Sequence record: NC_070981.1
Origin: Escherichia phage EK010
Length of the DNA: 64,000 bases
Direction: 5' to 3' (one strand)
Position 1 is the first letter of the stretch. The number at the start of each line of letters is the position of its first letter. Shown one piece after another: positions 15,052 to 28,415 of the stretch. The notes under the pieces were generated by a model. That model was not told the DNA's origin and made no database searches. It worked only from the letters and a program-made list of their open reading frames with translations. A program made the position numbers and the translations under genes.

Positions 15052-15075
15052 TTGGTAGTAGATATGATAACTCTC

Positions 15076-15084
15076 AAATGTATA
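15076..15084 (+). promoter_or_regulatory. promoter-like motif AAATGTATA (one mismatch to TAATGTATA)
   Basis: Intergenic, 37 nt upstream of ATG 15122. Confidence 0.35.
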
Positions 15085-25694: not shown

Positions 25695-25845
25695 ACGATA
25701 CAAAGTCTGGCTAGACGAAGGAGCTGAATATCCTGATGGTTCTGGCTGGAAAGTTGTTCTAGAAACAGACGACAGGGAGGAGGCTGAAACGAAAGCTGAA
25801 TCCTTCAACTACTCATATTACGAGGACACATACGAGAATGGCTGA
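25678..25845 (+). CDS. small acidic protein, paralog of 24931-25110
   Basis: Internal ATG; shared motif with 24931 ORF. Confidence 0.4.
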   Translation: MVAQSKRYKVWLDEGAEYPDGSGWKVVLETDDREEAETKAESFNYSYYEDTYENG

Positions 25846-26458
25846 AGTTTATTTTGCAGGTGATGGTCACCTAGGCCATCGTAACATCTGTAACTTTAGG
25901 AAGAAGTTTAGTAGTATTGAAGAACATGATAAAGCTATCTTAGCAGCGTTTGATCATGTTACTAAACGCGATAAAACTTTCTTTACAGGTGACTGGGTGT
26001 TTGAGAAATATGCACTTGATATTATCGCTGAAGTAAAGGGAGAGAAACATCTTGTCTTAGGGAACCATGACAGATTAGAACTTCTCCCTGATATGATGAA
26101 AGTCTTTAGACATATCAGCGGTGATTATAAGTACAAAGAATTTTGGGTAACTCATATTCCTATCCACTCTGATGAAATGAGAGGAAAGTATAATATCTAT
26201 GCTCATACTCATAATTCTACTATCAGAGATTGGAGATACTTCTGTACTTCTATGGAACAAATTGATTACAGAGCTGTGTCTCTGCAAGAGATTAGAAAAG
26301 AACTGGAAAGTAGGAAAGAGTGGGTAGCTTCTTTATTACAAAAAGATCATCCAATTACCAGCGAAGTACAAGAGATGTTAAGTAAACAAGCTGAATCTAA
26401 CTTACCTTTTCAGAGAACAGTAGAACAAACTAGCTTTAAAGGTCTTTTAGAATGGTAG
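25838..26458 (+). CDS. metallophosphoesterase (calcineurin-like phosphatase)
   Basis: 'GDGHLGH', 'GNHD', 'HTHN' metal-ligand motifs. Confidence 0.6.
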   Translation: MAEVYFAGDGHLGHRNICNFRKKFSSIEEHDKAILAAFDHVTKRDKTFFTGDWVFEKYALDIIAEVKGEKHLVLGNHDRLELLPDMMKVFRHISGDYKYKEFWVTHIPIHSDEMRGKYNIYAHTHNSTIRDWRYFCTSMEQIDYRAVSLQEIRKELESRKEWVASLLQKDHPITSEVQEMLSKQAESNLPFQRTVEQTSFKGLLEW

Positions 26459-26494
26459 AAGTTATTGTTTTAAGTTAAGTTTTCTTTTGATTTT

Positions 26495-26560
26495 AATAGA
26501 GAATCAAAGTCCTAGGAGTCCTCAACCTAAATCAAGGATTTCCTTAATTCTCTATTTTTA
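26495..26560 (+). terminator. long inverted repeat with T-run (possible terminator or operator)
   Basis: AATAGAGAAT (26495-26504) and ATTCTCTATT (26547-26556) 42 nt apart, followed by TTTTTA. Confidence 0.3.
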
Positions 26561-26652
26561 TCTCGCAGGTGTCTCCTGCCCTTCGGTACTTGCAAGGGTT
26601 ACGATGATTGCCCAATATACAAGCCTGCAATAGCTTTACTAGCTATACCATA

Positions 26653-26661
26653 TATACATTA
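26653..26661 (-). promoter_or_regulatory. promoter-like motif TAATGTATA in reverse orientation
   Basis: Same 9-mer on the opposite strand in the same intergenic region, pointing leftwards into non-coding DNA. Confidence 0.25.
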
Positions 26662-26723
26662 CTACTTACTGTTATCTACTACCAAAAAGGTTATAGTATA
26701 ATAGAACCTTATCTGTATAAGTG

Positions 26724-26732
26724 TAATGTATA
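26724..26732 (+). promoter_or_regulatory. promoter-like motif TAATGTATA
   Basis: Intergenic, 59 nt upstream of SSB-like gene; TATAAT-like hexamer at 26697-26702 nearby. Confidence 0.4.
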
Positions 26733-26791
26733 TAGTATACAAACCGCTCAAAGAGAGCAACAATCTTAAATCTATATAAGGAAATATTAAT

Positions 26792-27532
26792 ATGTCTATG
26801 ATCCCTGAACTGTCTGTATCCCGTAAATCCAACTACGATGTAATCCCTGATGGTGAGTACGAAGCACGTATTGTTCGTGTTGTAGGTTTGGGTGTTCACA
26901 ATCGTGACCCTTGGATTGACCCTAAAACCAAAGCAGTTACTCCTAAGAACCCAGCTTTCCGTATGGACTTAGCTTTTGAGCTGATTGGCGTAGATGCAAC
27001 AGGGACTGATAATGAAGGCAAACCTCTGGACCCTCGCCCTGCTTGCCAGTTTAAATCTTTCGATGTAAATCCACGAGCTAAGAACTCTGGTATTCTGAAT
27101 CTGATTAAAATGATCGACCCAAGTGTTCAAGCACTGAAAGGTGATTTGGGTTGGTTTAAAGATATGCTGTTAGGTCAGCCTGTTAACATTCTGGTTAATT
27201 CCTATGTAAACAAAGCTGGTGAGAAGAAAAACTCTATTAAGAGTATCACTCCAATTCCGACCAAATATCGTGATGCTGTAGGTGCTCCTCGTAGTGAGTT
27301 GATCTTCTTCGAACCGTATGCTGAGACTGATGCTAACTTAGCTGCTTATCAAGCAATCTTCCCATTCCAACGTAACCTCTTGACTCAAGCTAACGATGCT
27401 AAGAACATTCCTCTGGCTGGTCGTGAAGTTACCAAAGCTTCTGACACTGAACAGAAGGACGCAACTCCGAGTATCCCTACTATTAATGAAGAGCCGCAGT
27501 CTACCTTTGAAGAGGACGACTCTCCTTTCTGA
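26792..27532 (+). CDS. single-stranded DNA-binding protein-like
   Basis: Acidic C-terminal tail ending 'EEDDSPF' (compare bacterial SSB 'DDDIPF'); follows a promoter-rich intergenic region. Confidence 0.5.
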   Translation: MSMIPELSVSRKSNYDVIPDGEYEARIVRVVGLGVHNRDPWIDPKTKAVTPKNPAFRMDLAFELIGVDATGTDNEGKPLDPRPACQFKSFDVNPRAKNSGILNLIKMIDPSVQALKGDLGWFKDMLLGQPVNILVNSYVNKAGEKKNSIKSITPIPTKYRDAVGAPRSELIFFEPYAETDANLAAYQAIFPFQRNLLTQANDAKNIPLAGREVTKASDTEQKDATPSIPTINEEPQSTFEEDDSPF

Positions 27533-27555
27533 TGAATCTCTCCTTGTAATAGCTT

Positions 27556-27578
27556 AGCCACCTTCGGGTGGCTTTTTT
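27556..27578 (+). terminator. rho-independent terminator (UUCG tetraloop)
   Basis: AGCCACC-TTCG-GGTGGCT followed by TTTTTT, after SSB-like gene. Confidence 0.7.
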
Positions 27579-27591
27579 CGTTGGAGTTAAA

Positions 27592-27933
27592 ATGGAAAAG
27601 CTTCAAAACAATATAGGCTTTCTTATTTTCACAGCTCTTATTTTCTTTGGTGGAATGAAGTTTGAGCAATATCGAAACGATAGCAGTGCTCTTGACCAAG
27701 AGAAGAAACAACAAGAGATAGAGATTGAGAGAGCCAAGGCTGCTGATGAAGTAGCTCAGAAAGTTCTTACCGGTTTAACTAACTGGAAGAAGAACACGGA
27801 AACTATTTACAAAGAGATGCATTATGAAAAGACTAAGCCAGTTTTTTACAATGTGTGTGCTAGCGATGAGTATGTCTCTTTATTTAACCAAAGACAGGAA
27901 GAAGCTAAGAGGGTTTTAAAATCGAAGGAATAG
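27592..27933 (+). CDS. membrane protein with N-terminal TM helix and helical periplasmic region (i-spanin-like)
   Basis: ATG 27592 with GGAG RBS; 'IGFLIFTALIFFGG' TM segment then charged helical region. Confidence 0.4.
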   Translation: MEKLQNNIGFLIFTALIFFGGMKFEQYRNDSSALDQEKKQQEIEIERAKAADEVAQKVLTGLTNWKKNTETIYKEMHYEKTKPVFYNVCASDEYVSLFNQRQEEAKRVLKSKE

Positions 27934-27956
27934 AAGAGTTTTTATCCTATGATGAA

Positions 27957-28415
27957 ATGTCAGGAAAACTAACGTGGAGAAGCTCTGAAAAGAAGAGCAA
28001 TCAATGGAACTCTAGGTTTGCTGGAAAAGAGGCTGGCTGTTTGATAGATGCTGGATACATTGTTGTGAGGTTTAATGGGAAAGCACATAAAGCTCACAGA
28101 GTGGCTTGGTATTTAAAAACAGGAGAAATCCCTGATACTGATATCGACCACAAAGATCAGATTAAATCTAACAATTCTTGGACCAACCTGAGAAAAGCAA
28201 CCAATGCGCAGAATCAGATGAATACATCTGCTCAGAAGAATTCTATAACAGGTATAAAAGGTGTCGGATATAGAAAGGATGTTAACAAGTGGACTGCTCG
28301 AATAGGGTTTGAGGATAAAGTTATTTGGCTTGGTTTTCATGATACACTGGAAGGAGCTAAGTGTGCATATAAAGAAAAAGCTATTGAGTTGTACGGGGAT
28401 TTTGCTAGCTTTTAG
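27957..28415 (+). CDS. HNH homing endonuclease with AP2-like domain
   Basis: 'IDHKDQIKSNNSWTNLRKATNAQN' plus AP2-like region; conserved N-terminal motif continues upstream of the first ATG. Confidence 0.6.
   Translation: MSGKLTWRSSEKKSNQWNSRFAGKEAGCLIDAGYIVVRFNGKAHKAHRVAWYLKTGEIPDTDIDHKDQIKSNNSWTNLRKATNAQNQMNTSAQKNSITGIKGVGYRKDVNKWTARIGFEDKVIWLGFHDTLEGAKCAYKEKAIELYGDFASF

Follow-up and report, generated by a model that had tools for sequence, protein, structure and literature searches.

Phage phiEco32 is the model for the reprogramming of Escherichia coli RNA polymerase by the phage sigma factor gp36 together with gp79. The published promoter element of gp36 is tAATGTAtA, in which AATGTA occupies positions −14 to −9 (centred at −11.5), and transcription starts 6–8 nt past the element. 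Six gp36 promoters of phiEco32 have been published, P6, P13, P26, P40, P58 and P68, located upstream of genes 6, 13, 26, 40, 58 and 68; three of them, P40, P58 and P68, are the middle promoters of the phage. The cryo-EM analysis of the gp36–gp79 open complex on P68 revealed that gp36 contacts −37G, −34A, −14A, −13A, −12T and −11G, and the mutation of these contacted bases compromised or abolished transcription. As the published bioinformatic promoter search covered the gene-direction strand of the intergenic regions only, a backward-facing copy could not have been found by it. The gp36 promoter set has so far been taken as six, all of them serving genes.

Cis-antisense RNAs that converge with the 3′ end of their target are known from the Enterococcus par locus (RNA I/RNA II) and from the B. 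subtilis prophage pairs bsrG/SR4 and txpA/RatA, and a small hydrophobic ORF facing an antisense RNA is the layout of type I toxin–antitoxin pairs. Phage promoters are also found at origins of replication: oriF and oriG of T4 consist of a middle promoter and an unwinding element, and the primary origin of T7 comprises phage promoters and an AT-rich region. Moreover, RNase III-type processing or stabilising structures occur between T7 genes.

The DNA analysed here (the window) is a 64,000-nt stretch of Escherichia phage EK010 (NC_070981.1) which, by its similarity to known genomes, is that of a phiEco32-like coliphage (Kuravirus). Positions 25800–27600 are 100% identical, in reverse complement, to Escherichia phage E20-1 (Kuravirus, phiEco32 group). 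About 100 related phage genomes match this segment, and a region homologous to the intergenic gap at 26459–26791 is present in 97 phage records. The locus is composed as follows:

25838–26458: phosphoesterase gene, the left flank of the gap, with its stop codon at the gap edge.
26459–26791, no strand: the whole intergenic gap, flanked by the phosphoesterase gene on the left and by gene 40 (246 aa, phrog_6599) on the right.
26792–27532: the 246-aa gene (phrog_6599), with its ATG at 26792, homologue of phiEco32 gene 40.

Counting ATG-started ORFs of at least 45 aa, no other ORF-free stretch on the + strand of the first 32 kb is as long as this gap (333 nt; the runner-up has 188 nt). A preliminary description had already singled it out as the longest non-coding stretch of the + arm and as structured, and both points hold, as does the presence of every element it listed at the coordinates given; the gap folds better than its shuffles on the two strands (z = −4.0 for plus, −2.95 for minus). 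The boundary between gene classes that was also proposed there is not supported: according to the published scheme, middle genes lie on both sides, and P40 itself is a middle promoter. What the gap separates is two transcription units, and not two temporal classes. The DNA polymerase gene lies 2.8 kb upstream, and the downstream neighbours include spanin, sigma factor gp36, dNMP kinase and exonuclease genes.

The flanking genes have some features of their own. The phosphoesterase has 206 aa here, of which the last 32 correspond to the C-terminal half of a 54-aa ORF (phrog_14248) that stands alone in phiEco32-type phages; the two genes are fused by a deletion that removed a 35-aa ORF as well. 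For gp40, no sequence match was found in Pfam or PDB, and its single-sequence AlphaFold2 model was unusable (pLDDT 35). The protein ends in an acidic tail (...STFEEDDSPF), which we take to resemble the C-terminal tips of E. coli SSB and T7 gp2.5, and one GenBank record names a gp40 homologue an ssDNA-binding protein. Further downstream, an HNH endonuclease gene (27957–28412) follows the Rz-like spanin gene (region 27568–28415). The annotation of phage Bas87 joins the spanin CDS from two pieces around an HNH gene (L152 10792–11684), which suggests an intron or a mobile insertion at the spanin/HNH locus.

Two copies of TAATGTATA in opposite orientation had been noticed in the gap, and they are indeed present (minus strand 26653–26661, plus strand 26724–26732). 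What had been missed is that TAATGTATA is the published gp36 element. The window contains four exact copies in 64 kb against 0.41 expected, a number reached by none of 100 shuffles, and every one of them except the leftward copy of the gap falls on a known promoter position. The two gap copies constitute a 12-bp inverted repeat GTAATGTATATA (26651–26662 and 26723–26734), and repeats of at least 12 bp arise in 0.3% of dinucleotide shuffles. The promoter elements, known and predicted, are:

26651–26662, minus strand: leftward gp36 −10-type element GTAATGTATATA, with its core TAATGTATA at 26661 to 26653.
26673–26685, minus strand: leftward −35 element TTGGTAGTAGATA, spanning −39 to −27 and including −37G and −34A.
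26646, minus strand: predicted leftward transcription start (A), inferred from AATGTA at −14 to −9 and starts 6–8 nt past the element.
26723–26734, plus strand: middle promoter P40 (GTAATGTATATA), predicted start A26739.
15052–15084: P68-like promoter, TTGGTAGTAGATA-N11-AAATGTATATA, with the −35 element at 15052–15064.
19877, plus strand: exact gp36 motif matching the SU10 promoter between CDS56 and CDS57, counterpart of phiEco32 P58.
36859, minus strand: exact gp36 motif matching the SU10 late promoter between CDS23 and CDS24, counterpart of P26.

The rightward copy matches the SU10 promoter listed between CDS37 and CDS38 and stands upstream of gene 40 in phiEco32; by this correspondence it is the known middle promoter P40, so that P40 and the gp36 motif are the part of this locus that was already known. 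A similar motif also precedes the gp40 homologues of distant Grimontviridae.

The leftward copy belongs to a complete promoter architecture on the minus strand, composed of TTGGTAGTAGATA, 11 nt and TAATGTATATA. Its −35 13-mer is that of the P68-like promoter in both sequence and spacing, and this 13-mer is the best match to the gap elsewhere in the window. All six bases contacted by gp36 in the P68 structure are present. Among 18 distinct kuravirus sequences, the mean pairwise identity is 100% from −9 to −15 and 90.8% in the −35 element, but only 43.5% in the spacer. The conservation of the leftward copy thus reads as a promoter footprint, with both elements kept while the spacer varies. The TGGTAGT-spacer-AATG layout is retained in relatives with 67–79% gp40 identity. 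There are two kinds of exception at the −10 element: one metagenome contig has TAATATATA, with a G-to-A change at the contacted −11, and the sister clade L153/L158/L161 has TGGTAGT-N15-TAATGAATA (AATGAA). On these grounds, the leftward copy is a predicted P68-type gp36 promoter. The −37 G and −34 A are shared by the P68-like, P58-like and leftward promoters and are missing from P40 and the late promoter.

The leftward promoter, the 5′ hairpin and the ultraconserved module described below are apparently undescribed, which for the promoter is based on later papers restating the six-promoter list rather than on the founding papers.

Five relatives (L013, at ~905–1130, L014, L006, L049 and L092) carry an insertion of ~130 nt with a 47-aa ORF (MKFNHKYAATEKARAYVTARQSRVYKRQSPTNNSKETFVWTKPTTFR) between the divergent promoters, at the equivalent of the site between 26686 and 26722. 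The divergent promoters therefore behave as independent modules. In another relative whose gp40 is 79% identical (L163, 1–110), the leftward promoter TTGGAAGTAG...GAATGAAATAG is followed by the hairpin ACAGU-N12-ACUGU at +1 and then by UUUUUUCUUU. Such an arrangement would yield a leftward RNA that terminates after a very short distance; any block would lie beyond the end of that contig.

The gap also has the TATAAT-like hexamer previously pointed out (26697–26702), located in the following element:

26687–26710, plus strand: hairpin AAGGTT-N12-AACCTT holding TATAAT, found in the E20-1 subgroup only and judged incidental.

A sigma-70 promoter at this hexamer was considered and discarded, since it has no −35 partner or plus-strand hit in the promoter scan and is not conserved.

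From the predicted start leftwards, the minus strand can be divided into the following parts:

26630–26646, minus strand: H1, the 5′-terminal hairpin AUAGCU-AGUAA-AGCUAU, whose first base is the predicted start A26646.
26587–26629, minus strand: variable domain, which exists in at least three unrelated versions in the relatives and ends in a near-invariant UUGCA (26625–26629).
26491–26586, minus strand: ultraconserved 96-nt block (H3 and H4 with invariant loops), 97.1% identity among 18 kuraviruses.
26565–26579, minus strand: H3 hairpin GCAGG-N5-CCUGC, with an invariant stem and its sole variable base in the loop.
26495–26556, minus strand: H4 domain, with closing arms 26495–26509 and 26542–26556 and inner helices UCC/GGA and UAGG/CCUA.
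26555–26559, plus strand: T5 run after the repeat, invariant in relatives, a possible U-tract of a weak plus-strand terminator and not called by the terminator scan.

Folding and covariance comparison with relatives, which had been suggested as a check, gave a divided answer: compensatory changes are found in H1, and the pairs of H3 and H4 are invariant, without covariation. Among 19 sequences, H1 occurs in five or six versions and every one of them pairs. Two of its six pairs show compensatory changes (UA in 17 sequences and GC in 2; CG in 14, UA in 3 and AU in 2). Cells changed on both sides number seven, against 0.9 in shuffles, and none of 500 shuffles reaches seven. One position is G.U in 10 of the 19 sequences and G-C in the other nine, and the plus-strand equivalent of this G.U is an A.C mismatch. 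Furthermore, the sister clade (gp40 72–75%) has a hairpin of unrelated sequence, ACAUC-AAAC-GAUGU, at the corresponding predicted +1, and UUGCA again comes after it. The covariation of H1 and its minus-only G.U pair constitute the strongest evidence for a selected minus-strand RNA, as far as comparative data can indicate one. The minus strand is also the more stable in 19/19 sequences (mean −46.8 versus −39.8 kcal/mol for plus), and 49/49 G.U cells are on the minus strand, in a structure that was itself predicted on that strand.

The variable domain lies between two segments that can pair with each other. The UUGCA(G)G following H1 (UUGCA at 26625–26629) is complementary to CCUGC(G/A)A at 26575–26581, overlapping the 3′ arm of H3, and a G-to-A change in L158 and L161 turns a U.G of this pairing into U-A. 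A possible long-range helix around the variable domain, mutually exclusive with H3, may therefore be drawn from the sequence.

The 96-nt block is the most conserved part of the locus. Its mean pairwise identity among kuraviruses (97.1%) compares with 88.7%, 91.0% and 72.8% at codon positions 1, 2 and 3 of gene 40. Relatives of intermediate divergence were found by a search for gp40 homologues, followed by comparison of their contigs. In these metagenomic relatives the block is 92–96% identical to that of E20-1 where gp40 is 69–75% identical and the remaining gap ~61%. It was not found where gp40 is 61–67% identical (L164, L156, L157), nor in Grimontviridae; for L155 (gp40 65%) the contig provides only 203 nt upstream of the gene, too short to judge. 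The leftward promoter is present in L164 and the block is missing there, so the two are separable.

The block also contains the 10-bp inverted repeat that had been described, AATAGAGAAT at 26495–26504 and ATTCTCTATT at 26547–26556, 42 nt apart and followed by TTTTT at 26555–26559, although its membership of a 96-nt ultraconserved block had been overlooked. By itself, the repeat is marginal, as repeats of at least 10 bp appear in 5.2% of gap shuffles; it is counted as real because it is conserved across relatives, not on single-sequence statistics. It corresponds to the outer part of the H4 closing helix; two invariant G.U pairs, which are A.C on the plus strand, lengthen this helix to 15 bp on the minus strand, and a substitution in XT32 produces a third G.U. 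H4 folds at −22.8 kcal/mol on the minus strand against −18.2 on the plus strand, and an extra C in L153 and L158 pairs with a formerly bulged G. Every pair of H3 and H4 is invariant, which gives no covariation evidence, and in the sister clade one base of the outer H4 helix is changed and uncompensated. The plus strand of the block can adopt a fold with an 11-bp outer and an 8-bp inner helix (consensus −24.6 kcal/mol versus −26.8 for minus), and the block indels are compatible with the folds of both strands. The block thus favours the minus strand weakly, while H1 is clearly a minus-strand element.

Between the closing arms of H4 (26510–26541), the minus strand has two direct repeats (U)AGG(G)ACU that vary in concert, with either GGGA or GGA in the two copies alike; UCC may be their partner, extended to UCCC in sequences with the extra C. 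This co-change points to one partner pairing alternately with the two repeats or to two identical candidate protein-binding sites.

The block indels are of 1, 2 and 1 nt, which indicates that the block is non-coding, and past the leftward start the minus strand of the gap has no ORF of at least 30 aa. Small ORFs annotated inside the gap in 4E8, EK5 and CHD5UKE1 were dismissed, as they are broken by indels and the variable spacer. In known RNA families, the whole window gave no Rfam hit at gathering score; in the gap, searched at E up to 10, the best was 6A RNA with 18.7 bits (gathering score 41.2), and six relatives gave nothing relevant. The tRNA/tmRNA scan (ARAGORN) found none. A covariance model (R1) found no second copy of the block in the window and no homologue in distant Grimontviridae. 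E. coli genomes gave no match to the RNA at E up to 10, for which reason a host mimic or a prophage origin was rejected. Regarding trans targets in the window, the longest exact complementarity is 12 nt, which is at chance level. Metagenomes scanned with 17-mers returned three real matches, nearly all the remainder being due to chance.

On the other side of the gap, the leader of gene 40 has a structured element as well:

26739–26791, plus strand: 5′ UTR of the gene 40 mRNA, with a stem-loop, AACAAUC and the Shine-Dalgarno sequence AAGGAAA (26778–26784).

The stem-loop GCUC-AAAGA-GAGC at 26746–26758 (arms 26746–26749 and 26755–26758) begins 8 nt past the predicted P40 start and is followed by a conserved (A/U)ACAAU(C/U). 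Its stem covaries (GCUC/GAGC, GUUCA/UGAAC, GUCC/GGAC, GUCCAA/UUGGAC, ACUCAU/AUGAGU and CCUCA/UGAGG), and it could serve as a translational operator or as a stability element. The Rfam motif ‘DUF2815 RNA’ overlaps it with a score below threshold (14.3 bits, gathering score 41.2).

Taken together, the gap would consist of two back-to-back gp36 promoters, P40 rightward and a P68-type promoter leftward. P40 gives the gene 40 mRNA with its conserved 5′ UTR stem-loop. Once gp36, helped by gp79, has replaced sigma-70 on the host RNA polymerase, leftward transcription would start at A26646 on the minus strand and, leaving gene 40 behind, would be antisense to the last part of the upstream operon. This would produce a non-coding RNA of about 155 nt to the conservation boundary, in which H1 would be followed by the replaceable variable domain, the invariant H3 and the invariant branched H4 closed by the helix of the 10-bp repeat. 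The minus-strand scan called no intrinsic terminator after H4, which is followed by UAAAAUCAA (UUUAAAAG in phiEco32). The one terminator-like site further downstream, at 26287–26266, was rejected as the RNA 3′ end, its stem being destroyed in most relatives. In the lack of a conserved minus-strand terminator, a discrete 3′ end is assumed.

The earlier idea of an antisense or small RNA made from the leftward motif has thus gained a full gp36 promoter architecture, a conservation footprint and a covarying hairpin at the predicted start. That a gp36-driven leftward non-coding RNA exists and explains the block is the reading preferred here, and it seems reasonably probable. The promoter architecture with its footprint, H1, the non-coding character and the ultraconservation come from comparison among relatives; from them we infer that the promoter fires, where the RNA ends, on which strand the block acts and what it does. 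The RNA could act as a cis-antisense partner of plus-strand transcripts reading into the gap, or as a protein-bound, trans-acting RNA, both modes being put forward with low certainty. Extreme conservation would follow from the cis-antisense option, because both strands would be constrained, and the convergent layout together with this constraint fits a cis-antisense regulator best. The plus-strand face, in which an AU-rich stem and U5 come right behind the stop codon of the upstream gene, could additionally serve as a processing site or a weak terminator.

A more far-reaching proposal, which we regard as doubtful, is that the block is the core of a new phage RNA class, either a structured primer or R-loop former defining the replication origin of phiEco32-like phages, or a protein-binding RNA. 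Such a role would explain why loops and stems are invariant beside proteins drifting to ~70%. In its protein-binding variant, two identical GG(G)ACU sites might control the gp36/gp79 switch or counter a host factor.

There are also rival explanations for the block. It has been considered that the upstream middle operon has its 3′ end in the block, which would act on the plus strand as a terminator or as an RNase III-type processing or stabilising structure; the leftward promoter would then be a separate element, blocking read-through by convergent transcription, for example. The position of the block, starting 5–35 nt past the upstream stop codon, agrees with this, as do the plus-strand fold, which beats its shuffles (z = −3 to −3.8), and L164, with its leftward promoter and no block. 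A stem followed by UUUUUAU exists on the plus strand only, but A-U pairs dominate this stem (2 G-C in 10 bp), which encloses 42–45 nt and was not called by the terminator scan, and the four terminators listed for SU10 include none here. Moreover, drift and covariation are the rule in terminators, but here even the loops and the 30 nt past the U-run are invariant, and the extension of the helix meets A.C mismatches on the plus strand where the minus strand has G.U. We consider this explanation unlikely. An AT-only hairpin of L164 was examined as the ancestral plus-strand terminator and discarded as too weak (−5.8 kcal/mol, z = −1.7).

A DNA-level element is about equally unlikely. The block would be an origin fired by the leftward middle promoter (RNA-primed or through an R-loop), or a cluster of protein-binding sites. 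The leftward promoter serves no gene, and the site lies within a replication module, with DNA polymerase 2.8 kb upstream, the SSB-like gene 40 and then the exonuclease; the promoter-plus-transcript layout is compatible with RNA-primed initiation. At the DNA level, the block has two direct repeats AGTCC(C)TA with 9–10 bp spacing, both shortened together in one subgroup, and palindromes with a 1-nt centre (GGAGTCC, AAGGATTCCTT), which are impossible as RNA hairpins. AT-rich DNA follows the block; however, no AT-rich unwinding element comes directly after the promoter, where the first 155 nt are structured and ~40% GC. GC skew gave no origin signal at the gap and tracks only the coding-strand switch near 32 kb. 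The covariation of H1 and its strand-specific G.U argue for selection on RNA, although a primer RNA might need H1 too.

Finally, conservation of a block without own function through repeated exchange among co-infecting phages, as a recombination linker or gene-conversion tract, would suit the mosaic gap (block, variable-domain, H1 and gene 40 types assort independently) and the several HNH endonucleases of these phages, but it is very improbable, given that two block variants three indels apart each persist across diverged flanks, which makes one recent sweep unlikely, that no endonuclease gene adjoins the block, and that the promoter footprint and H1 covariation require selection.

Under the preferred reading, a gp36-driven leftward RNA, the gp36 regulon would gain a seventh promoter, of the strongest (P68) type and facing backward, and with it a non-coding output in the form of an easily testable RNA. 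Its core is the most conserved sequence nearby and is kept in metagenomic relatives at 69–75% gp40 identity, suggestive of importance to the phage. Should it prove to mark an origin or to regulate the middle operon, it would fill a known gap, as replication initiation is uncharacterised in this group. These phages are widely isolated for therapy, and an essential non-coding element would be relevant to their engineering.

In phiEco32-type relatives, the upstream unit ends in a tiny hydrophobic ORF of 25–35 aa. It is found in phiEco32-type phages (35 aa, phrog_24970, MVTYILYFLAFLGIIFLSIILEFGLSKLVNYLGSK) and in L161 and L164, including 25-aa and 31-aa analogues, and in many relatives it lies just to the left of the block or leftward RNA, facing the leftward promoter (L012 583–690, L007 ~1083–1190, L161 ~1132–1209, L164 ~361–456). 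A type I toxin–antitoxin-like pair was rejected for the present locus, as the ORF is absent from the window and from the E20-1, Paul, XT32, ECBP2 and L153 types.

Compared with phiEco32 P68, the predicted leftward promoter has the same −10-type (t)AATGTAtA, the same 13-nt −35 element TTGGTAGTAGATA with 11-nt spacing and all the gp36-contacted bases, and it shares the −10-type element with P40 and P58. Unlike P68, it opposes the surrounding genes, has no downstream ORF and is outside the published six. As in par, bsrG/SR4 and txpA/RatA, a small structured RNA would be aimed at the 3′ end of the upstream unit; in contrast to them, the hydrophobic ORF is missing in the window and in several block-bearing phages, and there is no shared bidirectional terminator. 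The resemblance to oriF and oriG of T4 and to the T7 origin lies in a middle-class promoter without a coding role, in a replication region, with AT-rich DNA further downstream; the difference is the 155-nt structured invariant module between promoter and AT-rich DNA. Lambda oop, P22 sar, the T4 species 1/2 RNAs and the PA5oct ncRNAs are likewise short non-coding transcripts from a phage promoter, and oop and sar share the antisense orientation. In comparison with these RNAs, the predicted leftward RNA matches no Rfam family, would need the phage sigma factor and is far more conserved than its surroundings.
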